Position numbers and translations under genes: made by a program. A model generated the notes under the pieces. It had not been told where the DNA came from, made no database searches, and saw only the letters and a program-made list of their open reading frames with translations. A stretch of DNA of 64,000 nt from Patescibacteria group bacterium (GTDB taxonomy: Bacteria > Patescibacteriota > Patescibacteriia > JAXHNJ01), in contig JAXHNJ010000001.1 in assembly GCA_034520665.1 (NCBI GenBank), positions 258,579 through 322,578 on the forward strand, written 5' to 3'. Position 1 is the stretch's first letter; every line of letters starts with the position of its first letter. Positions 1-57,159 of the stretch are shown in pieces.

Positions 1-70
1 AATATAAGATCTAATAGAGTAAACCTAGATTTTCAAAATATTATATTATAATAATTAATCAGATAAAATT

Positions 71-3489: not shown

Positions 3490-3966
3490 ATGATAAAAAT
3501 AATATATGCAACAATTGAAGATTATGATGACTTTCTTGATGTATTCAAGGAGATTGAAGAATATCATAGAGTAAATGCTTCTTGGAAATTTCAAAAACCT
3601 AAACCTGAATTATTTCCAAGAGATTATTTTCATAAAGTAATTGAAGATGAAAATGGTATATTTTTTTTAGCCAAGGATAATACTAAAATTGTTGGTTATT
3701 TAACAGCTTTTGAAGAAAAATCTCCTGATAGGTCCATGTTAAAACTGAGAAAATATATACAGATAGATGATTTATCTGTAAGAAGCGATTATAGAAAAAA
3801 AGGTATCGGTACTTTACTAATGGATAAACTTGAAGAATTGGCTAAAAAAAATAAAATCTATGAAGTGGAGCTTAATGTATGGTGTTTTAACAAAGGTGCA
3901 ATAAAGTTTTATGAAAATAAAGGATATGAATCATTTACTCAGAAAATGAGGAAAGTTTTAAAATAA
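3490..3966 (+). CDS. GNAT family N-acetyltransferase
   Basis: Motif A (R/Q-x-x-G-x-G/A) seen as RKKGIGTLLM, and an FYENKGY C-terminal motif typical of the GNAT fold. Confidence 0.65.
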   Translation: MIKIIYATIEDYDDFLDVFKEIEEYHRVNASWKFQKPKPELFPRDYFHKVIEDENGIFFLAKDNTKIVGYLTAFEEKSPDRSMLKLRKYIQIDDLSVRSDYRKKGIGTLLMDKLEELAKKNKIYEVELNVWCFNKGAIKFYENKGYESFTQKMRKVLK

Positions 3967-4121
3967 AATTTTGAACTTCTCGCTATCGCTCCGTTCGGCT
4001 CGCTTAACAGAAGTATATGCGGTTTGCTCGTTGCCCTTTGCTTTCCCAAATTCTTCACCACGTTTGAAATTTACCTTAAGCCCGATATTAGATCTAATTT
4101 ACAAAACAATTTTTAAATTAT

Positions 4122-4952
4122 ATGGAAAAAAATCTAGAACAATCACAATCTACTAAAAAAATGGAAAAGCCGGAAGATTGGCTGCCAGGGGGGACTGAGC
4201 AAGAACAATATCTCAAAGAACATAAGGAATGGCGGGGTTTAGAAAAACGATTAGGGCAACCGAGGATATTAAATAATGTTTATTTCCCGGAAATTTTAGC
4301 TTGGATTCAAGAAGAATTTAAAGATAATCCTGATGCTTTTTCTTATTTCGAGGCAGGCTGTGGCCACGGAAATGATTTTCGAACCATAAGAAAAGAGCTT
4401 AAGGCTAGAGGCCGCTATCTCGGCGTTGATATGAGTAAGGCAGAAATCATTCACGGGATGAAATTTTATAAAGACGCGGAGGAAGCAAGAAAATTATTTG
4501 CTCAAGGTGATCTTCGTAATTTAAGACATGTTAATATTTGGGATAGGGGAAAAAGAGATTTTTCTCAACCTGTGGAAATTAAAGATGGCGAATTTGATCT
4601 TATCTATATGGAGGCGGTGTTACACGGACTTGGTTATAGTAAAAAAACCTTTCAAGAGAAAAAGGAATCAGCCCAACAGATGCTTAATGAATTATATCGT
4701 ATTTGTAAAGCTGGAGGAAAATTTTTTGGACGAGCCTCCATATTTGGCTCCACCATTACAAAAGAAAAACAATTTGAACTTCTGCGCAAGACAAATAATT
4801 GGCGCTTCATTCCTGAAGCTGAAGAATTTAAAGAAATACTTAAAAAAGCAGGGTTTACAAATATTAAAGGGGCATTGACTCCACATGAAAAAGCAAAAGA
4901 GGATCCAAATAAAAAAGATATTCTGCGATTTTCTTTTTTAGCTGAAAAATAA
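4122..4952 (+). CDS. class I SAM-dependent methyltransferase
   Basis: Motif I EAGCGHGND, then an acidic residue at the end of beta-2 (LGVDMS). Confidence 0.6.
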   Translation: MEKNLEQSQSTKKMEKPEDWLPGGTEQEQYLKEHKEWRGLEKRLGQPRILNNVYFPEILAWIQEEFKDNPDAFSYFEAGCGHGNDFRTIRKELKARGRYLGVDMSKAEIIHGMKFYKDAEEARKLFAQGDLRNLRHVNIWDRGKRDFSQPVEIKDGEFDLIYMEAVLHGLGYSKKTFQEKKESAQQMLNELYRICKAGGKFFGRASIFGSTITKEKQFELLRKTNNWRFIPEAEEFKEILKKAGFTNIKGALTPHEKAKEDPNKKDILRFSFLAEK

Positions 4953-4985
4953 TTTTTTCAGATTAAAAAATGTATTTTGCAAACA

Positions 4986-5090
4986 GTACATAACAAGGTA
5001 TATCTGGTTTCGCTTCTCCTAAGGTTGTCCCTTGATATAAATTTAATACTTCAGATATACGCGAACGTTAATTGCAATTTAGTTTAGGAC
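4986..5090 (+). repeat. attC-like boundary repeat (ATAACAAGGTATATCTGG ... CAGATATACGCGAACGTTAAT)
   Basis: Outer arms are reverse-complementary. An identical copy sits at 8345-8449 inside the segmental duplication. Confidence 0.55.
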
Positions 5091-5134
5091 TTTCTGACAT
5101 AAAATTTATATAATACATAACCCATTTTTTTCTT

Positions 5135-5608
5135 ATGAAGTTTAGAAAATTTAAGAAGAGTGATATTAGACAGATTGCAAAAATTAAGAATTCTGTTTTT
5201 AGTAGTTTCAATAAATCAGAATATTTTGAAAAAGGAACCGTTTCAAAATATTTAAATTACACCAATTCAAAAAAGTCAGACAAAGAACTCCTTGAAGCAT
5301 TTAAGATAACTAAGGATTCTATTTTTTATGTTGCTGAAGAAAATGATAAAATTTTCGGATATATCAAAGGAAGAAAAAATAGAATCGGGAATTTGTTTGT
5401 TCTTGGTCAAAACCATAAAAAAGGGATTGGTAGAAAATTAGTTAATTTATTTGAAAAAGAAGCAGAAAAACAGAACTCTAAAGAAATTAAGATTCACTCT
5501 TCAATTTATGCAGTTCCTTTCTATCAAAAAAGGGGTTATAAGAAAACTACTGGAATTAGAAATCTTCATGGCTTGAAGATTCAACCAATGAAAAAAGTCC
5601 TAAACTAG
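5135..5608 (+). CDS. GNAT family N-acetyltransferase (paralog 1 of 2)
   Basis: HKKGIGRKLV motif A. 98% identical to the ORF at 8494..8967. Confidence 0.65.
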   Translation: MKFRKFKKSDIRQIAKIKNSVFSSFNKSEYFEKGTVSKYLNYTNSKKSDKELLEAFKITKDSIFYVAEENDKIFGYIKGRKNRIGNLFVLGQNHKKGIGRKLVNLFEKEAEKQNSKEIKIHSSIYAVPFYQKRGYKKTTGIRNLHGLKIQPMKKVLN

Positions 5609-5993
5609 ACTTCTTCGAAATTTTTTCAGAATTCCTCGACCCCGCTGCGCTCTCGCCTATGGCTCGGGGTAATTAACAGGATTTTAACGGAAAAATACTC
5701 GGCTCGCATTTTCCCAAATCGCCTACGGCAAAACTTCTCTAAATCCTGAAGTTGTGCAAGACCCCATTTCTTGCCAAGAGGATTTTCAGGATTTTTTGAG
5801 AAAAGGGGAGTAGGGGAAGAGGTTTTTTATTGGTAAAAAAAATGGTAAACTATAGACAGTATCGGATTATATAATGGTTTAATAAAACTTCGTATAATAA
5901 CGAGTTAAGTGAAATTGAGAATTTGTCCTATGAGATTTAAATGGGCACGATTTTTTCCGAAAACTTTATATCACTACATACTTTTATTAATTT

Positions 5994-8095: not shown

Positions 8096-8311
8096 ATGAA
8101 AAATTTTGAAAAAAACATTGGCCAAGGAGAAAGTTTATTAGAATTAGCCGCAAAAAAACTTAATTTAGATCCAAAAAACACCTCGTTAAATGAAGTAGAG
8201 GCAGTTATGCTTGGATTGCCAAAAGAAAGTTCCGTTTATGAGGTTGAAAAAGCAAAAGAGGATCCAAATAAAAAAGATATTCTGCGATTTTCTTTTTTAG
8301 CTGAAAAATAA
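8096..8311 (+). CDS. hypothetical protein; the last 20 aa are identical to the C-terminus of the methyltransferase at 4122..4952 (chimeric ORF at a duplication junction)
   Basis: C-terminus KAKEDPNKKDILRFSFLAEK is shared. The duplication breakpoint falls inside the ORF. Confidence 0.3.
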   Translation: MKNFEKNIGQGESLLELAAKKLNLDPKNTSLNEVEAVMLGLPKESSVYEVEKAKEDPNKKDILRFSFLAEK

Positions 8312-8493
8312 TTTTTTCAGATTAAAAAATGTATTTTGCAAACAGTACATAACAAGGTATATCTGGTTTCGCTTCTCCTAAGGTTGTCCCTTGATATAAA
8401 TTTAATACTTCAGATATACGCGAACGTTAATTGCAATTTAGTTTAGGACTTTCTGACATAAAATTTATATAATACATAACCCATTTTTTTCTT

Positions 8494-8967
8494 ATGAAGT
8501 TTAGAAAATTTAAGAAGAGTGATATTAGACAGATTGCAAAAATTAAGAATTCTGTTTTTAGTAGTTTCAATAAATCAGAATATTTTGAAAAAGGAACCGT
8601 TTCAAAATATTTAAATTACACCAATCCAAAAAAGTCAGACAAAGAACTCCTTGAAGCATTTAAGATAACTAAGGATTCTATTTTTTATGTTGCTGAAGAA
8701 AATGATAAAATTTTCGGATATATCAAAGGAAGAAAAAATAGAATCGGGAATTTGTTTGTTCTTGGTCAAAACCATAAAAAAGGGATTGGTAGAAAATTAG
8801 TTGATTTATTTGAAAAAGAAGCAGAAAAACAGAACTCTAAAGAAATTAAGATTAACTCTTCAATTTATGCAGTTCCTTTCTATCAAAAAAGGGGTTATAA
8901 GAAAACTACTGGAATTAGAAATCTTCATGGCTTGAAGATTCAACCAATGAAAAAAGTCCTAAACTAA
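8494..8967 (+). CDS. GNAT family N-acetyltransferase (paralog 2 of 2)
   Basis: Differs from 5135..5608 by three substitutions (S45P, N104D, H130N). Confidence 0.65.
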   Translation: MKFRKFKKSDIRQIAKIKNSVFSSFNKSEYFEKGTVSKYLNYTNPKKSDKELLEAFKITKDSIFYVAEENDKIFGYIKGRKNRIGNLFVLGQNHKKGIGRKLVDLFEKEAEKQNSKEIKINSSIYAVPFYQKRGYKKTTGIRNLHGLKIQPMKKVLN

Positions 8968-9007: not shown

Positions 9008-9084
9008 CTGCCCGCCATAGTCTACGGCATCAGGCCTTGGCTCGCCCGCCTGAGTTGCTCAGGCAAGTCGGGCGGCAGGCGGGC
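9008..9084. repeat. 77-bp GC-rich palindromic insertion (REP/MITE-like) present in only one copy of the duplicated repeat
   Basis: CTGCCCGCC...GCCTGAGTTGCTCAGGC...GGCAGGCGGGC has terminal and internal inverted repeats. The paralogous position 5647/5648 is uninterrupted. Confidence 0.6.
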
Positions 9085-9412
9085 GCTCTCGCCTATGGCT
9101 CGGGGTAATTAACAGGATTTTAACGGAAAAATACTCGGCTCGCATTTTCCCAAATCGCCTACGGCAAAACTTCTCTAAATCCTGAAGTTGTGCCAAACCC
9201 CATTTTTTGCCAAGAGGATTTTCAGGATTTTTTGAAACAAGGGAAGTAGGAGAAGAGGTTTTTTTATTGGTAAAAAAAATGGTAAACTATAGACAGTGTT
9301 GGATTAATATAATGGTTTAATAAAAATTCGCATAATAAACAAATTTGAGGTGATTATACGAAATCAATTCGTATAATAACGAGTTATCGGAAATAAAAAT
9401 AGTAAAATTTTT

Positions 9413-15337: not shown

Positions 15338-15625
15338 ACTTTTGAATAAGGAGTTTTGAAAAATGGAATTCACCCCTAACCCCCGCCCGCCTCGCTACGC
15401 GAAGCGTTGCGGGCAGGCCTCTGCCCAAAATTCAAAACGGGAAAAATCAAATTTATAAGAATTAAAGAAAGTCTATCATGAAGAATAAGAACGAAAAATA
15501 TTTTTTGAACTCACTCCGCTTTGCTCCGCAAAACATCAAATATAGGCAAACCTTGTGCCAGACCTCATTTCTTGTCAAGAGGATTTCCAGGACTTTTTAA
15601 GAAAATGAAATTAATTTATTAAAAT

Positions 15626-30919: not shown

Positions 30920-31851
30920 ATGAAAAAATATAATCTTAAGAACCAAGTTCATTTCATCACTATTAATACATATAAAAAATACTGGCTTTTTAAGAAAGAA
31001 AATCTTTGCCAAATAGTAATTGATAATCTAAATTTTTACCGCCGTAAATTTAGTTTTAAATTATTGGGTTACGTAATTATGCCTAATCATCTACATTTAT
31101 TAATCCAATTAAATAAAAAATATAATGATATTTCAAAGGTAATGAGGGATTTTAAGAAATTTACAAGTGTTCAAATTATAAAGCAGTTAATAAAAGAAAA
31201 TGAAAAAGATTTACTTAAGAAATTTTCTATGACTGGAAAAATTTTTAATTATCCCTCTACTCTGGGTACTGCCCGATCCTCAGATCGGGCCGGCTTTCCA
31301 GCTGAAGGCCGAATCTGAGGATTCGGCCTACCCGACTAGTTTTAGAAAGAAGAGAAAATATTCAGTCTGGATGAATGATTTTTACGACTTTAACATCTAT
31401 TCCGAGAATCTTCTACTCTGGGTACTGCCCGATCCTCAGATCGGGCCGGCTTTCCAGCCGAATCTGAGGATTCGGCTTACCCGACTAGTTTTAGAAGGAA
31501 GAGAAAATATTCAGTCTGGATGAATGATTTTTACGATTTTAATATCTATTCCGAGAATTTTCTACTCTGGGTACTGCCCGATCCTCAGATCGGGCTAGTC
31601 TCTCGGCCGAATCTGAGGATTCGGACTACCCGACTAGTTTTAGAAAGAAAAGAAAATATTCAGTCTGGATGAATAATTTTTACGACTTTAATATCTATTC
31701 CGAGAATAAACTAGAGCAAAAACTTAATTATATTCATAATAATCCAGTCAAAGCCAAGATAGTTAAAAAACCTGAGGATTATAAATGGTCTTCTTACAGA
31801 AATTATTATTTGGATGATGATTCAATAATAGAAATTAATCAGTTATTTTAA
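30920..31851 (+). pseudogene. Disrupted IS200/IS605-type (REP-associated) tyrosine transposase gene, interrupted by three tandem 149-156-bp repeats that each carry a GC-rich double hairpin
   Basis: N-terminal part 30920..31318 has the HuH motif (MPNHLHLLIQ). C-terminal part 31669..31851 has the catalytic Tyr region (VWMNDFYDFNIY...YIHNNPVKAKIV...DYKWSSY). The 149-bp repeat is not a multiple of 3, so the frame is broken. Confidence 0.6.
31254..31707 (+). repeat. Three tandem copies (156, 149, 149 bp) of a unit made of a GC-rich palindromic element plus about 75 bp of transposase coding sequence
   Basis: Each unit has the hairpins GCCCGATCCTCAGATCGGGC and CCGAATCTGAGGATTCGG. A fourth partial copy sits at 31928-32143. 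Confidence 0.8.
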
Positions 31852-32160
31852 ATAATTTAAATTCTTAAAATATGGTATTACTAAATATTATTTCTGGGTA
31901 GGCGAAAGCCCTCGCTTTTGCCATACTTTGATGCTTAAAACATTTTCTATGACTGGCAAAATTTTTAATTATCTCTCTACTCTGGGTACTGCCCGATCCT
32001 CAGATTGGGCCGGCTTTCCAGCCGAATCTGAGGATTCGGCCTACCCGACTAGTTTTAGAAAGAAAAGAAAATATTCAGTCTGGATGAATGATTTTTACGA
32101 TTTTAATATCTATTCCGAGCATAAATTTAATAATAGAAATTAATAGACTATAAAAAAAAC

Positions 32161-32610: not shown

Positions 32611-32880
32611 AAGGGCAAAGTAATTTTATACAAAATAATAATTTTGTCAAGTATTTTTTGGCTACCAAGCTTATTTTTGGCTAATATTAGTTTATTAATA
32701 TCTAAATTCTAAACAAATTTTAAATTACAATATTTTAAACTATAAATTATTTTGATTTTTCGAGAATAGAACCAAATACTTTCATAAGTTTTGTAGATTC
32801 GTTGATTAGTATATTTTTTTTCTCCCACTTGTTGATTTATAGGATTAGTTAACCTTTTTATTATCAACAAAAAGATATCT

Positions 32881-33183
32881 CAAAAATTATCTTACACATT
32901 GATATGAATAGCTATTTTGCTTCTTGTGAACAGCCCCGCACCACTTCTCTTCGGCGCTCAGAGTTGGATGCGGGACGAAGTTTAATTAATTTTATATTTT
33001 TATGACTTCGATTATCTTACATATTGACATGAACAGCTATTTTGCTTCCTGTGAGCAGCCCCGCACCAATTCCTCGTTTTACTCGGAACGATGCGGGACG
33101 AAGTTTAATTAATTTTATATTTTCATGACTTCGATTATCTTACACATTGATATGAACAGCTATTTTGCTTCTTGTGAACAGCA
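32881..33183 (+). repeat. Three tandem 122-bp repeats. Each holds the first ~55 nt of the dinB coding sequence plus an upstream GC-rich hairpin; the third copy is the functional gene start
   Basis: ATGACTTCGATTATCTTACA(C/T)ATTGA(T/C)ATGAACAGCTATTTTGCTTC recurs at 32886, 33003 and 33125. Hairpins CCCGCACC...GATGCGGG lie between copies. 122 is not a multiple of 3; the decoy ATG at 33003 opens a 38-codon frame. Confidence 0.8.
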
Positions 33184-36239: not shown

Positions 36240-36624
36240 AAAAGAGGAAAGTGGCTATACAATCCTCAGCCTTTACGGCTCCACAATTCCTCAGGGGTTA
36301 TGAGCCCCTACTATTCGAGTTTTTCTCCTTATAGGAATTGTTTTAGGTGGTTAAAAATACCTATTGGGTGAGTTAGAAAGCTGTCTGCACCTTTCTAATC
36401 TAACAAAGATTTATAAGCCACTTTCCATCTGGTTGTTCAAAGTGCCATTATTAATTTATATTTTTTGACTTATGTTGTCAAGTATAATTGAGGAGGTGAT
36501 ATCTTTGAACAAAAAAGACTATCTTATATTGATAGTCAATAAATTTCCTAGCTTGGGTAAGTATCTGTCTATTTACCCAAGCCAAATCATGAACCTTAGC
36601 TCTTTGAAAAGGAGGTGAAAAAAG

Positions 36625-37194
36625 ATGAGACGCTTTATTTCACTTCTCATGGTTGGCTTGTTGTCATTTACTATGATGGCTAGTATCAGTTGCGAGCGGA
36701 GCGAGACGTCGGTGGAGGCGAAGTCAGATAAAGAGAGAAAAAAAGTTTCCATCCACTATGTAGGTAATGAAAGCCATGAAGATGTTTTAGCCAGTATTAG
36801 GAAAACAGAAAAATTGACTGGACATACTTTTTCCGATGAACAAAAAACTAAAATGCTGCAAGATTTCAGAGATTTTCAGTCAAAAAATAATCCTCAATCT
36901 TCTAAGCTTGCTACCAGTGTTATTACAGCCTACACTTGTTATTATGTCTATAATGGAGATAAAGATCTCAAACTTGAATTCAAGTGGTGGGCCGGACATC
37001 CTCGTTCTTATTACTTTACTACACCGAACTGGACTCTTTACTGGCTAATTAAAGTCTGTTATGGAGGAAATATTTTGAGCTGGACTTGGATGGAAGGTGG
37101 ATACCAGAGAGTATCAGCTATTGTTGGGTCTTGCGTCTATCTTCCTTTAGGTTCTTCTTTTGTCCGTTCTTATCTATGGCTTGTTTATTATTAG
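36625..37194 (+). CDS. secreted/lipoprotein paralog A (Trp/Tyr/Cys-rich C-terminal domain)
   Basis: Signal peptide MRRFISLLMVGLL with Cys at about 22 (SISC). The upstream 85 bp (hairpin, GGAGGTG) is identical to that of the gene at 37574. Confidence 0.45.
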   Translation: MRRFISLLMVGLLSFTMMASISCERSETSVEAKSDKERKKVSIHYVGNESHEDVLASIRKTEKLTGHTFSDEQKTKMLQDFRDFQSKNNPQSSKLATSVITAYTCYYVYNGDKDLKLEFKWWAGHPRSYYFTTPNWTLYWLIKVCYGGNILSWTWMEGGYQRVSAIVGSCVYLPLGSSFVRSYLWLVYY

Positions 37195-37485: not shown

Positions 37486-37573
37486 AGAATAAATCCGCGG
37501 TTTGGGTAATTTTCTGTCTATTTACCCAAGCCAAATCATGAACCTTAGCTCTTTGAAAAGGAGGTGAAAAAAG

Positions 37574-38185
37574 ATGAGACGCTTTATTTCACTTCTCATG
37601 GTTGGCTTGTTAGTTTTTATAACTACGGCCAGTGTAAGTTGTGATCGGACGGAAACTCCAGTGAAGGCAAAAAATGATAAGACTGATATTTATCAGGACG
37701 AAGATTTTGTCTCACAGCTTGAAGAAATTCAGCTCTACATGAGTTGGGTGGATAAAGTAGAGCCTTATGTTACGCGCCATCAGGATATGACTTATTCAGT
37801 GGATTGGTCCGGATTTTACACCAGTATTAATAAAAATAACCTGACTAGTCAGGATAAAAAAATACTGGAAGATCTTGAAAAATCTGTGCCTATTGCCAAT
37901 GAAAATATTCTGAATAGCAGTAATAAAGCCCTGCCAAATTCTACGCAGTCTATTTACGAAGTTTGGTACTGGTGGGGTAAAAAGCTCTGCTTTACTGGTG
38001 ATGATGCTGTTTACTGGAGTACTGGCTTTGCTAATGCCGGCTGGGTTATTAATAAACTCGGTGTGCCTGGTGTAGTATTAGGCGCTTATATTGGCTGGGC
38101 CCAAATATTAACCTACCAGTGTGGTGGTTTTTGTCTGGTTAGTTCTTGGCTTTATCCGGCTGCTGTCTGGGTTTATTGCCCGTAA
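37574..38185 (+). CDS. secreted/lipoprotein paralog B (Trp/Gly/Cys-rich C-terminal domain)
   Basis: Same leader and signal peptide as 36625. The mature region has diverged. Confidence 0.45.
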   Translation: MRRFISLLMVGLLVFITTASVSCDRTETPVKAKNDKTDIYQDEDFVSQLEEIQLYMSWVDKVEPYVTRHQDMTYSVDWSGFYTSINKNNLTSQDKKILEDLEKSVPIANENILNSSNKALPNSTQSIYEVWYWWGKKLCFTGDDAVYWSTGFANAGWVINKLGVPGVVLGAYIGWAQILTYQCGGFCLVSSWLYPAAVWVYCP

Positions 38186-38264: not shown

Positions 38265-38741
38265 ATGGATTATAAAATAATTTCTCTTATTAGCTTTCTA
38301 TTTATTGCCTTAGCTTCAATTTTTTATGGTTTCTATAAAATTAAAAAGGAAAAAGTTTTAAAGAAACCAGTTTTAGCCTTTTTATATTTAATACAAATTA
38401 TAATTTTTGTTGTTTTTATCTATATAGTGACTAAGAGGTATTTGGGTGGCTCGAATTTAACTAATAATAATTTTTTCTTTAAATTTGGACCTTTATTAAT
38501 AATTATTCCAGCCGGGCTTTTTGATTTATACAAAGCTTTTAGCAAGAGTAAAAAAATATTTTATTGGCATCTGTTGGCTTATTTAGTCCTATTAGTTTTT
38601 ATGTCACTGCTTTATTTAAACTTTAATTTAGCTATCTGGCAGGTACAGGTGATGTTTTGTATTACTTTAGTTTTAATTGTTTTTGTGGCTTATAAAGCTA
38701 ATAAGGCTGAACAAGAACACAAAAAAAAGTCAAGAAAATAA
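38265..38741 (+). CDS. polytopic membrane protein (158 aa, about 5 TM)
   Basis: Hydrophobic ORF downstream of paralog B. Confidence 0.4.
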   Translation: MDYKIISLISFLFIALASIFYGFYKIKKEKVLKKPVLAFLYLIQIIIFVVFIYIVTKRYLGGSNLTNNNFFFKFGPLLIIIPAGLFDLYKAFSKSKKIFYWHLLAYLVLLVFMSLLYLNFNLAIWQVQVMFCITLVLIVFVAYKANKAEQEHKKKSRK

Positions 38742-38781
38742 ATAAATTGTTCTTTTAACTTCCAAAAAAAGGAGGTCGCCT

Positions 38782-38829
38782 ATGAAACAAAATAGGTTTG
38801 TCTGGACCACGTTAGTCGTGGCCAATTAA
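38782..38829 (+). CDS. 15-codon leader peptide ORF (MKQNRFVWTTLVVAN), followed at 38834-38898 by a 17-bp-stem hairpin
   Basis: Strong SD GGAGGTCGCC. A paralogous leader MKQNRLTRAMINMAD lies at 40488-40535. The large hairpin TTCGGTATTAAGTACAG/CTGTACTTAGTTACCGAA is conserved in both copies. Confidence 0.35.
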   Translation: MKQNRFVWTTLVVAN

Positions 38830-38935
38830 TTCGTTTCGGTATTAAGTACAGCTCATCTTAAGTTTTTACATCTGTCTGCCTGTACTTAGTTACCGAAAAA
38901 CTTGTTTGTTCTTTGAAAGAAAGAAGGTAACAAAA

Positions 38936-39697
38936 ATGTTAGGCAAGATTTCGGTTTTTACGGTATTAATTCTTTTTGCCAGTTTCTTTTTCCTGCCTGC
39001 CTGCGATACCTTTGATGGGGATTCCGAGAATCCAGTGGGGGTAAATGAGGAAGAAGGTTCTTCTGAAAATCCAAAACCAGAAACCCTGGATTTTCCGGCA
39101 AGCCAATGGAATGAAAATGTAACTCATTCTGATGGTGACTCCATTACTGTTGAAGGGTCAAAAATGGCTGAGCAAAGAAAAATGCTTACTGGAGTCGGCC
39201 AGTATAATTCTTTTCCTTGGAGTTGGCACCTGCCTTTCAGAGGTTGTTGGTATATGACCTGTGGTTATGGTTGTGGCTATCACCAAGGTAATGATTATTA
39301 TTCAACAGATTGGGCTGTAGGAGGAAATCCTTGCGGCTATGAAGTTCTGGCTCCCGGGGCTGGTTGGGTGCTTTGGGCTGGATATAAATCCGGTTATGGA
39401 TATACGGTTTTAATTGAAGCTGGTCCAACAGGCCAGAGTAACGGAAATCGTTATATCTATCGTGTAGCCCACTTGAGTCGCATTGAAGTAGTGCCTGGCT
39501 GGTGGCTTCCCCGAGGATGGAGAATTGGAAGACATGGAAATACTGGAAATTCTACAAATTGTCATATTCATTGGACTGTTTATCGCGGACGTTATGCTGG
39601 GTATGGCAATGTTTATGGGTCCAGTTTTCCGCCCAGTTGGAGTTCAGGAGTTGATGGCTTTAATGGAAATTATGGAAGGTGGTGTTCAAAACAGTAG
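38936..39697 (+). CDS. M23 family metallopeptidase lipoprotein (LytM/lysostaphin-like peptidoglycan hydrolase)
   Basis: Lipobox LPAC. HxxxD motif (YHQGNDY). HxH motif in GNTGNSTNCHIHWTV. Confidence 0.7.
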   Translation: MLGKISVFTVLILFASFFFLPACDTFDGDSENPVGVNEEEGSSENPKPETLDFPASQWNENVTHSDGDSITVEGSKMAEQRKMLTGVGQYNSFPWSWHLPFRGCWYMTCGYGCGYHQGNDYYSTDWAVGGNPCGYEVLAPGAGWVLWAGYKSGYGYTVLIEAGPTGQSNGNRYIYRVAHLSRIEVVPGWWLPRGWRIGRHGNTGNSTNCHIHWTVYRGRYAGYGNVYGSSFPPSWSSGVDGFNGNYGRWCSKQ

Positions 39698-39788
39698 AGG
39701 ACATTTTTGGGTGGAAAGAATACTTAATAAGTATTCTTTCCACCCTTTCTATTTTTTTTAATTAATTAATAAATTATATATAAATCCT

Positions 39789-40448
39789 ATGAAAAAAACA
39801 TCTATTATCTATCTAATTATTATTTTATTAGTAGCCACTATTTTTGGATACTTATTTTTTATTCGAAGTAAAACTAGTGTAAATGATGACAAAATTATTA
39901 TTACGAATAAATCAAATAATAATAATATTAATAAAGTTTTAACAAATCAAAATACATATTTTAATAAAAAACTTGGTTTTAGGGTAGCGCTTCCGAGCTC
40001 TATAAATTTTTGGCAAGAGCAAGAAGGAACTCTTTCTCATCGAAATACTCAAAAAGAAGACCGAGTTACATTTTTATTAAATAATACATCCGGGGATGAT
40101 TATTTTCTTGAGGATCCTTTTTGGGTTGTAGTTCATGTATTAAATTCTCAAGATAAAAATGCTGTTCAATGGGCTGAGTCTGGTATTGATGCTCCGAGAA
40201 TATTAGAAGGATATGGTGAGCTTTCAAAAATTGTTGAAAGTAAAACTATTAAAATAAATAGTATAGAATGTATTGAACAAATTGAAAAAAGCGGAGAAGA
40301 AGCAACTACTTCCGCCTATCAGAAAATAATTTATTGCGTTAATAATAGCAGAATTTATGTAATTGAGGGTTATTCAAAATCAAAAGATGATTTTATGCTT
40401 TATAATGAAATATTTGCTAAATTTGTAGAAAATTTTGAATTTATATAA
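39789..40448 (+). CDS. hypothetical secreted protein (signal anchor)
   Basis: N-terminal TM; no motif recognised. Confidence 0.35.
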   Translation: MKKTSIIYLIIILLVATIFGYLFFIRSKTSVNDDKIIITNKSNNNNINKVLTNQNTYFNKKLGFRVALPSSINFWQEQEGTLSHRNTQKEDRVTFLLNNTSGDDYFLEDPFWVVVHVLNSQDKNAVQWAESGIDAPRILEGYGELSKIVESKTIKINSIECIEQIEKSGEEATTSAYQKIIYCVNNSRIYVIEGYSKSKDDFMLYNEIFAKFVENFEFI

Positions 40449-40641
40449 ATATATGATTCTTCGGATATTATAAAAAGGAGGTGGCCTATGAAACAAAATA
40501 GGTTAACACGAGCCATGATAAACATGGCCGATTAATTCATTTCGGTATTAAGTACAGCTCATCTTAAGTTTTTACATCTGTCTGCCTGTATTTAGTTACC
40601 GAAAAACTTGTTTGTTCTTTGAAAGAAAGAAGGTAACTAAA

Positions 40642-40824
40642 ATGTTAGGCAAGATTTCGGTTTTTACGGTATTAATTCTTTTTGCCAGTTTCTTTTTCCT
40701 GCCTGCCTGCGATACCTTTGATGGCGATTCGGAGAATCCGGTGGGGGTGACTTCACAGGACACGGAGATTTCCCATCAAGACGATCCTGGAATCAGTGAT
40801 TCTGGGGAAGAGACGGGAGAATAA
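40642..40824 (+). CDS. truncated paralog of the M23 lipoprotein: same signal peptide and lipobox, then a short acidic tail
   Basis: First about 45 aa identical to 38936..; shares the upstream leader-peptide/hairpin module. Confidence 0.4.
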   Translation: MLGKISVFTVLILFASFFFLPACDTFDGDSENPVGVTSQDTEISHQDDPGISDSGEETGE

Positions 40825-54566: not shown

Positions 54567-54654
54567 TATTTGACAAATAGTTAATTATTATTTAAGTTAA
54601 AATACTTAAAATTAATTTTTTGTTCTTTTAAGTTTCAGCACGAGGAGGTGTCTG

Positions 54655-55242
54655 ATGAAACGCTGTTTTGTGATAATGTTGGCGGTGATAATTTTAGTAC
54701 CGCTTTCAGTGAAAGCTGAAAAACCGGCTATGGGTCAGTGGGGCTTTACTTATGGCGTTTTCAACAACAATTTTGCCTGCCGTCAAGGGTTGAATGATTT
54801 TCACGTAATGGGAGCCCAATTCTATTTTCCAGTTAACCGGTATGTGGCTTTTGGTCCGAGCGGACTTTATAACGGTGTAGATTCTAGCTGGCCAGAGCTT
54901 TCCCATACGGATGGCTTGAATGTTGATTATTGGCAAACTAGCCTGGATATAAAAATATCCACTTTTCCCTATAAGTTGATTAATCCATTTCTTATTTTTC
55001 ATCTGGGAGCTTACGATCTGGCTCTGGAAAATGAGGGTTTATCAAATATTCAGGTTAATGAGGGCACTCATACTTTTATGGCCGGTACTTTCGGCGTTGA
55101 ATTTTCGTTGGATCAGTTTGTCTTGGGAGCCCGGGCTACGGCTATGACTTTTGAAAAAATAAAATTTGGAGTAAATCCAGGCACAGAAACAGATATAAAT
55201 GTGATTTATCAAGCTTTTCTAGGTTTTCATTATAAGCTTTGA
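54655..55242 (+). CDS. hypothetical secreted protein
   Basis: Signal peptide; Gly/aromatic-rich. SD GAGGAGGTG. Confidence 0.35.
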   Translation: MKRCFVIMLAVIILVPLSVKAEKPAMGQWGFTYGVFNNNFACRQGLNDFHVMGAQFYFPVNRYVAFGPSGLYNGVDSSWPELSHTDGLNVDYWQTSLDIKISTFPYKLINPFLIFHLGAYDLALENEGLSNIQVNEGTHTFMAGTFGVEFSLDQFVLGARATAMTFEKIKFGVNPGTETDINVIYQAFLGFHYKL

Positions 55243-55302
55243 TTTTTTCCTGCTTTCTTCTACTACCCCTGCTTTTTTGAGTAGGGGTTTTTTATTTTAA
55301 TA

Positions 55303-56400
55303 ATTATAAAACGCGGAGATAAATTTTTTACTTACGCAAAAATAAACATCTCTATCCGCGTAGCTGGAGATTTATCTCCAGATTCATCTTTTAAAGCCTA
55401 TTAATTTTTCTTTTAGTCTCATCATTCCGATAATAATTACGATAACCTGAATATTTATAATCTTTGGGGTTTTTAAAGCTTTTATAAAAGACTCTATTAT
55501 TTTATCCGCGAGAAGAACTGGTCCCCAGACCGGTTCTGACAATATATTTAATAAGCTCAGACTTCTTGGTAAATTAGAGATTTAATAATCTATTTTGCTC
55601 GAGAAGGTTGGATCTCCTGATCCAACCGAATAAGGTGACGCGGATCAGAAGATCCGCGCTTCTCGGGTAATTTTAAGGGCTTCCTTGGCAGTTTGTTTTA
55701 TACTAGGTAGTTTCCAATGGCTTTTTTATTCCAAACCCACCACCAAAACCTTACTAGCTGCTATAACCATAACCAATTAGCAAAAAAGAGGGTTTTGGGC
55801 CGAGCCGCTAGTTTGGTTATTAGGCTGAGTCAATGGTTTTTTATTCCAAACCCACAACCAAAACCTTACTAGCTGCTATAACCATAACTAATTAGCAAAA
55901 CATAAATCGCCGGATAAATCCGGCGCCAGGCTATTAAATAATATAAAATATAATTTGGTGCAACATTCATATGGCGATATTTTAAAAAAGGTTTTTTCGC
56001 GAGAAGAACTGGTCCCCAGACCGGTTCTGGCAATATATTTACTAAGCTCAGACTTCTCGGTAAATTAGAGATTTAATAATCTATTTTTCTCGAGAAGGTT
56101 GGATCTCCTGATCCAACCGAATAAGGTGACGCGGATCAGGAGATCCGCGCTTCTCGGGTAATTTTAAGGGCTTCCTTGCCAGCTTGTTTTATACTAGGTA
56201 GATGCGGTGCGGGCCATGACCCGCCTCTAGGCCTGGTTCATTAATATTAAAAATAAATTTAAACAAAAGCATAATATTTGAATATTTAATATATAGCGGA
56301 AATAAAGATTCCCGCCTAGGCGATTTTATTTAAACGCGAAAATAAATCTTTTGCCTACGCCAAAACAAACATCTTTACCACGTCGGTGGAGATTTATCTC
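55303..56400. repeat. about 1.1-kb non-coding nested direct-repeat region: R1 – A(207 bp) – B(70 bp) – B' – A' – R1'
   Basis: A 55504-55710 and A' 55996-56201 are more than 95% identical with multiple hairpins. B 55727-55795 and B' 55833-55905 are CA-rich. R1 55303-55392 and R1' 56330-56400 contain the GGAGATTTATCTCC palindrome. Confidence 0.8.
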
Positions 56401-56677
56401 TTTTTTAGGAAGAGTAAGGATTTTCACTGTAATATAGACAAAGATGGAAAGCTTGCTTGCCAAGCCTCTCTTTAGGTCACTACTTCAGAGGGTAAAATTC
56501 GCCCCAAATTATGAAAGGAAAATAGCTTACCGGCTATGATCTAAGAGCATATAAACAGAAAATCTTGCCTTCAAGCCGTAGTTTCCCGTAGGGAGGCAAG
56601 GCTTGACAGAATTAATATTTTGTGTAAAATAATAATTAATTAGTTTTTAGCGTTCTTTATAAAAAAGAGTTTTTATT

Positions 56678-57001
56678 ATGATAAAATCATCAGCAAAAAT
56701 TGGTAAAGATTGTATTGAAATAATAAATACTGATTTCGCTGGATTGGAAATTAATCTTAACCCCCAAAAAACAACAATTGGAAAATCCATTAAAAATAAT
56801 ATATGTTTAGATGATCCTTTGATTTCTGATAAACAGGCTGTTATTTTTCGGAAAAACAGAATTTTCTATTTGGAAGTTATTAATTTTGAAAATAAAGTTT
56901 TTGTTAATAATAATGTAGTTGATAAAAAATATTTATTAGCAAACGGAGATATAATTAAAATTGGTAAATTTGAATTATTATTTAAATCAATTTTTTCTTA
57001 G
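56678..57001 (+). CDS. FHA domain protein
   Basis: TIGKS ... ISDKQAVI ... GDIIKIG core FHA pattern. Confidence 0.6.
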   Translation: MIKSSAKIGKDCIEIINTDFAGLEINLNPQKTTIGKSIKNNICLDDPLISDKQAVIFRKNRIFYLEVINFENKVFVNNNVVDKKYLLANGDIIKIGKFELLFKSIFS

Positions 57002-57084
57002 TTGTTAAATTGAAAGGAGGAAGAATGATTTTTATACGGGAGACATCCCCGTAAAGGTCACACGGGCCTAATTAGTACCTTATT

Positions 57085-57119
57085 GCCCTGAAATAAATAA
57101 TTTCAGGGCAATTTTTTTA
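57085..57119 (+). terminator. Rho-independent terminator
   Basis: GCCCTGAAA-taaataa-TTTCAGGGC followed by AATTTTTTT. Confidence 0.55.
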
Positions 57120-57159
57120 TTTTTCTAATATAATAAAATATGTTATAATAAATTCTATT

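Follow-up and report, generated by a model that had tools for sequence, protein, structure and literature searches.

A structured leader and signal-peptide module repeated upstream of lipoprotein genes in a Patescibacterium: a candidate cis-regulatory RNA

Lipoprotein families of the vlp/vsp type in Mycoplasma, like polymorphic toxin and effector loci, carry a conserved 5' UTR/signal-peptide block or N-terminal module, and the ydaO/yuaA (c-di-AMP) riboswitch is a cis-regulatory RNA that stands upstream of cell-wall hydrolase genes. The module described here was identified in a 64,000-nt stretch of DNA from a Patescibacteria group bacterium (the window). As in the Mycoplasma families, a near-identical 5' block precedes divergent mature domains, with tandem copies, concerted evolution, mosaicism and orphan fragments; the differences are that neither a recombinase nor an invertible promoter nor a long homopolymer tract was found here, that the payloads are enzymes (M23 and C39-like) and not repetitive antigens, and that the block bears covarying hairpins. 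As with ydaO/yuaA, a structured leader lies ahead of peptidoglycan-hydrolase genes, but its architecture is unrelated and cmscan gave no match to that riboswitch in the window or the related loci. The module also recalls the transcription attenuators of trp/his and the translational attenuators of erm/cat, in that a short ORF, served by an SD of its own, precedes a structured region and a partly paired second SD; it has, however, no terminator, overlapping alternative helices or regulatory codon run, no conserved arrest peptide is evident from the sequences, and the place of the ORF end among the hairpins varies. Thermometers of the fourU and ROSE-like types share with it a weak hairpin just ahead of the start codon, in which a short U-rich tract (here UUCUUU) is predicted to pair with the SD region, whereas the module carries ~130 nt of extra conserved structure (H1-H3) with which a thermometer can dispense and has no Rfam thermometer match. 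Finally, an upstream SD can stabilise mRNA, as in the STAB-SD of Bacillus thuringiensis cry3A (summarised in PMC12970973), and initiating ribosomes block RNase J1 on the B. subtilis hbs mRNA (PMC5737220). These precedents stand before genes for highly expressed secreted or structural proteins and have in common with the module a strong SD-like sequence within a structured leader, over 100 nt ahead of the real start; bound ribosomes, and not the peptide, would be the active principle. They differ in that the upstream SD (SD1) here leads into a genuine start codon with an ORF of 10-15 codons and that three members of the family have no SD1.

The module occurs in the window as a direct repeat with 93% identity over 38766-39042 and 40472-40748; the alignment of 38766-39046 with 40472-40752 has 22 mismatches in 281 nt (Table 1). 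Each unit consists, in order, of SD1 with a 15-codon mini-ORF, hairpins H1 and H2, a TTAATTC linker, hairpin H3, hairpin H4 over a second SD (SD2), the start codon and the signal peptide, and the SD, 15-codon ORF, hairpins and lipoprotein start described in an earlier note on this DNA were all recovered in place. The repeat extends past the start codon to take in the whole signal peptide, the lipobox and the linker, as far as ...ENPVGV, and its total of ~280 nt is made up of a structured leader of ~170 nt and the coding sequence for the lipoprotein signal peptide and linker; the first ~108 nt of the M23 gene (MLGKISVFTVLILFASFFFLPAC DTFDGDSENPVGV) belong to it. The whole leader is more stable than shuffled sequence (z=-4.4 for copy 1, z=-2.8 for copy 2), and copy 2 scores 196 bits with CM R1. 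Given that the upstream membrane-protein gene ends 27 nt before SD1 and that there is no terminator between them, the leader is probably intercistronic. SD1 (AAAGGAGGU) lies ~165 nt ahead of ATG2 and is kept in all full copies, being invariant across the five close ones; combinations of a strong SD and a start are scarce in the window (15 on the + strand). The window also abounds in further duplicated upstream regions.

Table 1. Coordinates of the module copies, their parts and neighbouring features in the window.
Feature	Position	Strand	Details
Membrane-protein gene (MDYK...)	38265-38741	+	Upstream neighbour; synteny anchor to L002
Leader, copy 1	38768-38941	+	CM-matched full copy
SD1, copy 1	38770-38776	+	AGGAGGT within AAAAAGGAGGT; strong anti-SD match, 5 nt upstream of ATG1
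H1, copy 1	38779-38796	+	CCUAU/AUAGG; ATG1 partly within 5' arm
Mini-ORF, copy 1	38782-38829	+	MKQNRFVWTTLVVAN*; stop is TAA within conserved TTAATTC
H2, copy 1	38804-38823	+	Hypervariable block, 3' half of mini-ORF
Linker TTAATTC	38826-38832	+	Conserved; bears mini-ORF stop in 4/6 close copies
H3, copy 1	38834-38898	+	18 bp, one bulged U, loop ~27 nt, -20.3 kcal/mol
H4, copy 1	38903-38933	+	UUGUUuGUUCUUU / AAAGAAgGuAACAA; encloses SD2 (GAAGGU, 38923-38928); -7.8 kcal/mol
M23 peptidase gene	38936-39697	+	ATG2 at 38936; Pfam PF01551 E=2.3e-14; NCBIfam MepM-like
Intrinsic terminator	39709-39745	+	After M23 gene
Leader, copy 2	40474-40647	+	H2 40509-40530, H3 40540-40604, H4 40609-40639
SD1, copy 2	40476-40481	+	AGGAGG
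Mini-ORF, copy 2	40488-40535	+	ATG1 at 40488; MKQNRLTRAMINMAD*, 15 codons
60-aa ORF	40642-40824	+	Shared signal peptide/linker plus 24-aa acidic tail; no Pfam match
Diverged full copy	36489-36630	+	Upstream of lipoprotein 36625-37194
Parts of diverged copy		+	SD1 36491-36496, UUG 36505, H2 36517-36537, H3 36551-36582 (loop UCUGUC), H4/SD2 36600-36615
Core-only copy	37499-37573	+	H3 37499-37532 then H4/SD2; upstream of lipoprotein 37574-38185; repeat D10

Four further full copies were found in metagenomes (L002:1279-1451, L002:2834-3006, L015:201-375 and L001:55-198), and the diverged full copy at 36489 in the window aligns to CM R1 from end to end (24.4 bits, E=0.004) and folds with z=-3.75. 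Three members, the one at 37499 and those in L019 and L020, consist of the core alone (H3, H4 and SD2) and all lack SD1, the mini-ORF and H2; the 37499 core is ~95% identical to L019:3368-3453 and L020:1900-1986, whereas the proteins are only 40% identical. There are at least eight copies from four sequence sources, and the module is so far restricted to a narrow clade of Patescibacteria. The collections were searched for the family by exact-pattern scans: the nine matches in genome contigs all fail the CM, metagenome contigs gave one true locus (L015) and one chance match, and viral contigs gave chance matches only, or none. The leader is absent from the remoter M23 homologues, at 48-57% identity (L003, L004 and L016-L018), and when the 41 shared N-terminal residues were run as a profile, the window's own 60-aa protein was the only match.

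Comparison of these copies indicates that all four helices covary, with changes on both sides at 15 of 36 pairs against 4.8+-1.6 in shuffles (0/500) and 93% paired cells in the alignment against 37-47% in slid controls, figures that draw on only ~4-5 independent lineages and on a CM-derived alignment which leans towards the model structure. Further homologues with covariation, proposed earlier as a check, do exist (L001, L002, L015 and the 36489 copy). The compensatory changes that the earlier note had read between the two window copies amount to one H2 pair (C-G to U-A), the remaining H2 changes not being strictly compensatory, and the covariation counts as evidence proper because it is the homologues that supply it and not the two window copies. 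Between the window and L002 the leader from the linker to H3 is 88-92% identical, whereas only 14 of 26 four-fold sites (54%) of the adjacent orthologous gene agree; this MDYK gene shares 70% amino acid identity with its counterpart at L002:778-1257. Judged by these comparisons of sequence, the leader is real and under purifying selection, with its hairpins evidently maintained on the coding strand. Recombination or recent transfer among co-occurring strains could nevertheless explain part of the conservation without any RNA function.

This raises the possibility that the module acts purely at the level of DNA, the conserved 5' block being kept alike solely as a homology patch for gene conversion and cassette exchange among polymorphic lipoprotein genes, with ordinary translation and export signals in it besides, and the hairpins having no regulatory role. 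Recombination and gene conversion are indicated because the copies are mosaics and because segments of the module are more alike within one genome than across genomes: L015 is an L002b-type leader joined to an L002a-type signal peptide and payload, and window copy 1 joins an L002a-like H2 to an L002b-like signal peptide. Differing or highly diverged payloads stand behind the near-identical module, and at the syntenic spot after the MDYK gene there is an M23 gene in the window but a C39-like gene in L002. Two peptidases, one M23 and one C39-like, are found behind the common leader and signal peptide, along with proteins of unknown function. The M23 protein, in which the HxxxD (HQGND) and HxH (HIH) motifs can be read from the translation, probably bears a lipoprotein signal peptide. 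The ORF at 40642-40824, which had been taken for a truncated M23 paralog, agrees with the M23 protein over its first 36 residues only and holds no M23 remnant, the signal-peptide module being all that the two have in common. It is an orphan signal-peptide module, given that leader and signal peptide front varied proteins in mosaic combinations; its product is identical to P0019, the NCBI hypothetical protein U5L76_01565 of a Patescibacteria MAG. An orphan module and the abundance of other duplicated upstream regions in the window would both suit a function in DNA exchange.

Homology patches, however, need no fold, and yet pairing has survived in H1, in H2 and in the outer H3 stem by way of double changes and of G-U wobbles on the + strand. 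In the 36489 copy H1 reads UCUUU/AAAGA, with three of its five pairs changed on both sides. Among the copies the outer stem of H3 covaries (C-G/G-C and U-A/C-G), and single-side changes in H3 are mostly G-U wobbles on the + strand. At H2, 13 of the 22 mismatches of the direct repeat cluster in a block of 30 nt (38797-38826; hypergeometric p=4e-9). Five of the seven H2 pairs are altered on both sides, copy 1 reading GGaCCACG-UUAGU-CGUGGCC (-11.4 kcal/mol) and copy 2 CGaGCCAUG-AUAAA-CAUGGCCG (-10.4 kcal/mol), and the six distinct H2 sequences are all predicted at -9.1 to -11.4 kcal/mol. A hypervariable hairpin of near-constant stability inside a homogenised region is hard to explain by conversion alone, and a function confined to DNA is considered unlikely.

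The earlier note had suggested translational or transcriptional attenuation; on such a reading, translation of, or stalling on, the 15-codon ORF would remodel the hairpins and switch either termination or the exposure of SD2. In keeping with this, all full copies conserve a strong SD1 and a short ORF with its start codon (UUG at 36505 in the 36489 copy, AUG elsewhere), SD2 is predicted to be partly sequestered, and a 3-nt indel between lineages in H1 preserves the reading frame. In four of the six close copies, moreover, the stop lies 4-5 nt before H3 and a terminating ribosome would therefore open the base of that hairpin. The stop site nevertheless shifts from copy to copy, falling just before H3, inside the H2 loop (L002b and L015) or beyond H4 (the 36489 copy), and the mini-ORFs are 10, 12, 14, 15 or 37 codons long, the close copies spanning 10-15. 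The peptides (MKQNRFVWTTLVVAN, MKQNRLTRAMINMAD, MKNRFASGHI, MKNRFIQATLAVAV and MVKNKARFWRGP) are not conserved in sequence; when compared as sequences only, they are alike at the N-terminus, M-K-(Q)-N-R or M-V-K-N-K, with divergent tails, and those of five copies contain no regulatory codon run and no run of a repeated residue. A scan of 38742-38935 and 40449-40641 found no intrinsic terminator, H3 being followed by AAAAAC and H2 by AAUUAAUUC, and none is present after the leader. Nor did constrained folding of the five close leaders reveal a conserved alternative fold or release of SD2: masking the mini-ORF or placing a terminating ribosome leaves the predicted accessibility of SD2 level (0.22 to 0.22, 0.35 to 0.35 and 0.44 to 0.47), H3 and H4 are the same in L002, L015 and L001, and the window copies show only non-conserved rearrangements. 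The anti-SD2 tract UUCUUU sits 70-100 nt past the mini-ORF stop, and the core-only members do without a mini-ORF. With neither a terminator nor any predicted refolding that depends on the mini-ORF, attenuation is not supported and is regarded as very unlikely. Given that the stop position varies and that three members have no SD1, the role of SD1 is at best accessory.

The partial sequestration of SD2 could also be relieved in another way, if the H3 apex, the linker and H4 sensed a small molecule, temperature or an RNA-binding protein and SD2 opened in response. H4 (UUCUUU paired with AAAGAA or AAAGGA) has predicted energies of -4.7 to -7.8 kcal/mol across members, a UUCUUU or CUCUUU tract is predicted to pair with the SD2 region in every one of them, and SD2 has a predicted unpaired probability of 0.22 in copy 1 and of 0.22-0.44 over all members. 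This U-rich tract over SD2 resembles those of fourU-type thermometers. The apical motif of H3 (AUCUGUCU at 38870-38877) is conserved as UYUGUCU in long and short forms of the hairpin, though its pairing register differs between them, and the 27-nt loop is ~90% conserved between lineages, as might be expected of a sensor. It has, however, neither the multi-helix junction nor the pocket that typifies riboswitch aptamers, H3 may lose ~40 nt with membership of the family retained (the short forms in L001, at 36551-36582 and at 37499-37532), and no alternative fold is predicted. Rfam gave no match at gathering threshold by cmscan in the window and 10 related loci (best sub-threshold E~3; best thermometer match E=3.1). 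Such a sensor is, on this evidence, quite unlikely.

The best explanation, to which we would give an even chance, is a portable and recombining module of leader and signal peptide that would act after transcription and not by attenuation. The weak H4, with its UUCUUU tract on the SD2 region, would restrain initiation on a secreted, potentially lytic protein, while the very stable H3 would display a conserved pyrimidine-rich UGUCU apex and might serve as a determinant of stability or processing, or as a docking site for a putative shared trans-acting factor, docking of which would subject every payload to a single control. In full copies, ribosomes would be drawn to the element's 5' edge by the strong SD1, the start codon and the short ORF; it would be the binding or passage of the ribosome that counts, for instance in protecting the mRNA as do 5' stabilisers of the SD type, and the peptide itself would be irrelevant. 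Against the part given to H4 stand its weakness and the fact that a U-rich tract ahead of an SD could equally be a translation enhancer. The suggestion of the earlier note that this is a new cis-regulatory RNA is borne out to the extent that the leader is conserved, structured and non-coding, lies on the coding strand, belongs to no Rfam family and has homologues with covariation, and that an action in cis on a potentially lytic enzyme is plausible. A more far-reaching reading takes the block for a dedicated exchange-and-expression cassette that would serve an episymbiotic Patescibacterium for secreted, polymorphic enzymes that attack cell walls; recombination within the block would swap payloads (M23, C39-like and others) between loci or strains and the shared leader would provide one post-transcriptional switch through a putative factor reading the UGUCU apex of H3; taken as a whole, this is speculative and unlikely.

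How Patescibacteria (CPR) regulate their genes has hardly been explored; a literature search turned up no CPR-specific cis-regulatory RNA, and the module offers a candidate that can be tested. The leader precedes enzymes (M23 and C39-like) that could attack a host or the wall of the cell itself, where tight control is to be expected, and the reuse of one leader and export signal before unrelated payloads in mosaics points to a cassette system that diversifies secreted lipoproteins and bears on the host interaction of episymbionts with reduced genomes. With a narrow distribution so far, in one MAG and three metagenome samples, and a mechanism that is only proposed, the module should be taken as a lead rather than an established result.

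Several other candidates were considered and rejected. An origin of the hypervariable H2 from a DGR is contradicted by the 5 of 13 differences that fall at non-A positions, and the window's 17 largest ORFs include no reverse-transcriptase domain. H3 is not an invertible promoter or operator palindrome, given a 27-nt spacer too short for inversion, + strand G-U wobbles in the arms and inconsistent -35/-10 elements, nor is it an integron attC-like site, the R'/R'' core sequences being absent. A pseudoknot between the UGUCU apex and lipoprotein codons 2-3 could form in the window copies (AGGCA) and the MRRF family (AGACG) but is broken in L002, L015 and L001. Pairing of the H3 3' arm with SD2 (GUUACC/GGUAAC) is present in the window copies and inconsistent elsewhere, its pairing with the signal-peptide coding region (through the repeats CGGTATTAA and TTAATTC) is consistent in the window copies only, and the ensemble favours neither.

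One further protein, P0018, has no Pfam, NCBIfam or PDB sequence match, and its motifs give a CHAP/NlpC-like impression. Consensus scans of the leader found no internal sigma-70 promoter; by eye, -10-like A-rich boxes can be seen just upstream of SD1 in several copies, with no conserved -35, and in the 36489 copy only, TATAAT lies immediately upstream of SD1.

The two leader copies of the window lie in a direct repeat (38766-39042 and 40472-40748, 93% identity), which bears out the duplication described in the earlier note, and 13 of the 22 mismatches in 281 aligned bases are clustered in a 30-nt block at 38797-38826 (p=4e-9 for clustering). Each copy opens with a strong SD (SD1) and a mini-ORF of 15 codons, encoding MKQNRFVWTTLVVAN in copy 1 and MKQNRLTRAMINMAD in copy 2, and continues through four hairpins (H1-H4), the last enclosing the SD of the downstream lipoprotein gene (SD2). 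The repeat extends past the lipoprotein start codon to take in the entire signal peptide, the probable-lipobox Cys and a linker (MLGKISVFTVLILFASFFFLPAC DTFDGDSENPVGV), beyond which the similarity stops abruptly. Both window leaders fold better than shuffled controls (z=-4.4 and -2.8) and, given that the upstream membrane-protein (MDYK) gene stops 27 nt short of SD1 and no terminator lies between them, the leader of copy 1 is probably intercistronic. The gene behind copy 1 encodes an M23 peptidase (PF01551, E=2.3e-14), with HxxxD and HxH motifs visible in the translation; the ORF behind copy 2 encodes a 60-aa protein, identical to hypothetical protein U5L76_01565 of a Patescibacteria MAG, which has only the 36 N-terminal module residues in common with the M23 protein.

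Features of the leader, its variants and the genes behind it (window coordinates unless a related locus, L, is named; L002a and L002b are the first and second leader copies of L002)
Feature	Position	Strand	Description
SD1	copy 1, 38770-38776	+	AAAAAGGAGGT, present in each copy
ATG1 of mini-ORF	copy 1, 38782	+	opens 15-codon ORF
H1		+	small hairpin CCUAU/AUAGG, ATG1 inside
H2		+	variable-block hairpin, between H1 and linker
Linker		+	AAUUAAUUC, mini-ORF stop codon within
H3	38834-38898	+	18 bp, one bulge, ~27-nt loop with AUCUGUCU
H4		+	tract UUGUUUGUUCUUU pairing back onto AAAGAAGGUAACAA, SD2 enclosed
ATG2	38936	+	start of copy 1 downstream gene
H2 versions 1-3			GGaCCACG/CGUGGCC; GCCAUG/CAUGGC; GCCACG/CGUGGC
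H2 versions 4-6			UGGCCAU/AUGGCCA; CCCGCU/GGCGGG; GACUAUC/GAUAGUC
Diverged copy	36489-36630		SD1 GAGGAGGUG; UUG exactly at AUG position of other copies; H1 arms compensated UCUUU/AAAGA; H2 present; short H3, loop UCUGUC; H4, CUCUUU pairs with AAGGAG of SD2
Payloads			M23 peptidase (window, L001); C39-like peptidase (L002a, L015); protein P0018 (L002b); orphan tail (window copy 2)
Small membrane-anchor-protein genes	39789-40448; L002:2217-2810 and 3829-4314; L015:1116-1766		

Searching protein sequences with the M23 enzyme as query yielded 18 matches. One, in L001, is an orthologue at 81% identity with a strongly diverged yet recognisable leader; M23 homologues at 48-57% identity are without such a leader. 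Locus L002 is syntenic with the window: behind the same MDYK gene (70% aa identity) come a leader copy (L002:1279-1451), a C39-like peptidase (PF13529), a small gene, a second leader copy, near-identical to that of the window, and P0018, a 250-aa non-M23 protein with only the signal peptide in common. An exact-pattern scan of metagenome contigs found L015, whose leader fronts a C39-like peptidase, while the same scan of a genome collection gave chance matches only and a scan of viral contigs found no leader. A covariance model (R1) built from the five close copies recovers the L001 leader (32 bits, E=5e-5) and a diverged full-length copy in the window (36489-36630; 24 bits, E=0.004), ahead of a gene from an unrelated lipoprotein family (MRRFISLL...). 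At the paralogous gene at 37574 the leader is reduced to the core of H3, H4 and SD2, which is ~95% identical in loci L019 and L020 even though the proteins they encode share only 40% identity; the H3 apex there reads UUUUGUCU, which narrows the invariant part of the motif to UGUCU. The distribution found is narrow, with few independent sequences. Since L002b fits the scan pattern yet was absent from the matches, the L002 sample lies outside the scanned metagenome set and, given that the species is likewise not represented in the representative genome set scanned, further leader copies probably exist.

The four hairpins covary among these homologues. In a seven-sequence alignment fitted to R1, 93% of pair cells hold standard pairs and 15 of 36 pairs have changes on both sides, against 4.8±1.6 in column shuffles (0/500 reach 15); these counts lean towards the model structure, but the single cases can be seen directly in the unaligned sequences. 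Pairing falls to 37-47% when partner columns are shifted by 1-3 positions. All six versions of H2 are predicted at -9.1 to -11.4 kcal/mol, and the outer stem of H3 shows C-G to G-C and U-A to C-G replacements. Where only one side of a pair changes, the result on the + strand is mostly a G-U wobble; read on the opposite strand these would be A-C mismatches, which speaks for an RNA transcribed from the coding strand and against a DNA palindrome. With a neighbouring orthologous gene as the neutral yardstick between the window and L002 (14/26 four-fold sites and 68% of third positions identical), the linker-H3 segment is 88-92% identical and SD1-H1 86%.

From a conserved structure plus a leader ORF the earlier note had put forward translational or transcriptional attenuation as the control of the downstream gene. 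The element is like leader-peptide attenuators in single features; the proposal fails its defining tests. There is no terminator-like site within or after the leader, the strong terminator at 39709-39745 lying after the M23 gene. When the mini-ORF, or the footprint of an initiating or terminating ribosome, was forced unpaired in constrained folding, the predicted accessibility of SD2 held steady (copy 1, 0.22 to 0.22; L002 and L015, 0.35 to 0.35; L001, 0.44 to 0.47). Furthermore, the peptide is not conserved and is without a regulatory codon run, the mini-ORF varies in length (10, 12, 14, 15 or 37 codons) and has its stop upstream of H3, within the H2 loop or past H4, and three members are without it.

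Segment-wise identities show that the leader copies are mosaics. L015 has SD1-H2 and H4-SD2 as in L002b and its signal peptide and payload as in L002a; window copy 1 has an L002a-like H2 and an L002b-like signal peptide. H1, H3, H4 and SD2 show genome-specific states common to both copies within each genome, a case of concerted evolution, and H2 type is not linked to any particular payload. The H2 block, seemingly hypervariable between the two window copies, is thus an old polymorphism: homogenisation has reached its flanks but not the block, which is still a hairpin. Variable lipoprotein families have conserved 5' UTR plus signal-peptide blocks, and at the DNA level the element behaves like such a block. 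Fast-evolving MRRF-family proteins sit behind the related core leader: between L019:3368-4036, L020:1900-2596 and window 37499-38185 the 5' UTR and signal peptide are ~95% identical, behind which the mature protein P0021 and the window protein are only 40% identical, so that divergence of the conserved module is sharply decoupled from that of the payload. After each hydrolase-type lipoprotein gene lies one for a small protein whose N-terminus carries a membrane anchor; one of these proteins is PsbP_2-like (E=2e-4). By analogy, the arrangement resembles effector-immunity pairs. Conserved 5' regions ahead of paralogues are a general trait of this genome rather than a peculiarity of the M23 locus: duplicated upstream or intergenic segments precede small paralogous genes at 466-648, 2748-2996, 5647-5900, 9083-9396 and 15512-15605, and 4886-5185 and 8245-8544 form a 300-nt perfect repeat.

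Conservation covers four features. The full version carries a strong SD1 with a start codon at its 5' edge; H2 remains a hairpin of about -10 kcal/mol whatever its sequence; H3 is very stable and displays UGUCU; and a U-rich tract pairs with the SD2 region. No Rfam family matches the leader. We regard it as a structured mRNA leader not described before, with a mini-ORF upstream, and its added interest is that it travels with an export signal ahead of interchangeable payloads. Its anatomy, covariation, conservation and modularity are shown; beyond these we infer a post-transcriptional role in three parts, a reading to which we give an even chance. H4 would throttle initiation on the secreted enzyme; H3 may determine stability or processing, or serve as a docking hairpin common to the whole gene set; and SD1 with the mini-ORF may act through ribosome binding, like the SD-type mRNA stabilisers STAB-SD of cry3A (PMC12970973) and hbs mRNA (PMC5737220). 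The resemblance to SD-type stabilisers and SD-occluding thermometers likewise lies in single features. In a 50%-identical M23 homologue, the true gene start (L003:1270-1330; AAAAAGGAGGAUGCCUAUGAGUAAAAAUCAUAAAAAUCGC, MSKNHKNRIFFV…) resembles SD1 and the mini-ORF start (AAAAAGGAGGUCGCCUAUGAAACAAAAUAGG, MKQNRFVW…); the mini-ORF may thus be what is left of an ancestral gene start that the H3-H4-signal-peptide block displaced.

A strong SD (AGGAGG, GGAGGT or AAGGAG) with a start codon occurs only 15 times on the window + strand, seldom in long ORFs, and then mainly at secreted or lipoprotein genes (36625, 37574, 54655); the region at 54620-54657 (UUGUUCUUUUAAG…GAGGAGGUG…AUGAAAC) resembles the stretch just upstream of copy 1 SD1. 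More distant M23 homologues are preceded by non-coding regions of ~550 nt (L004) and ~425 nt (L017), with repeated GCGCCGUCG-containing segments (L004:2690-2830, L017:190-300) and no Rfam match, and may represent another kind of leader for this enzyme family. At 57014-57125, a strong SD (AAAGGAGG) and a 9-codon ORF (MIFIRETSP, then stop), overlapped by a GC hairpin (ACGGGAGACAUCCCCGU) ending at the stop codon, are followed by an intrinsic terminator (UUGCCCUGAAAUAAAUAAUUUCAGGGCAAUUUUUUU) upstream of pgk (57160); R1 scores only 13 bits here (E 0.7), and the region has the appearance of a small transcript with a mini-ORF, or of an attenuator. Two further repeats in the window are unmatched in Rfam. 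One is a 147-149-nt unit at 31214-32122, present in four copies (three in tandem), each with a GC hairpin CUACUCUGGGUACUGCCCGAUCCUCAGAUCGGGC; the other is a 210-nt repeat (55501-55710 and 55992-56201, 96% identity) in a long non-coding stretch (about 55250-57000), holding several GC-rich hairpins, e.g. GUUGGAUCUCCUGAUCCAAC and GCGCGGAUCAGAAGAUCCGCGC. Finally, three tandem ~123-nt copies at 32842-33182 each carry an apparent 5' end of a dinB-like (IMS family) gene (…UUAUCUUACAyAUUGAyAUGAAyAGCUAUUUUGCUUC…), the repeated gene starts lying ahead of the real start at 33125.
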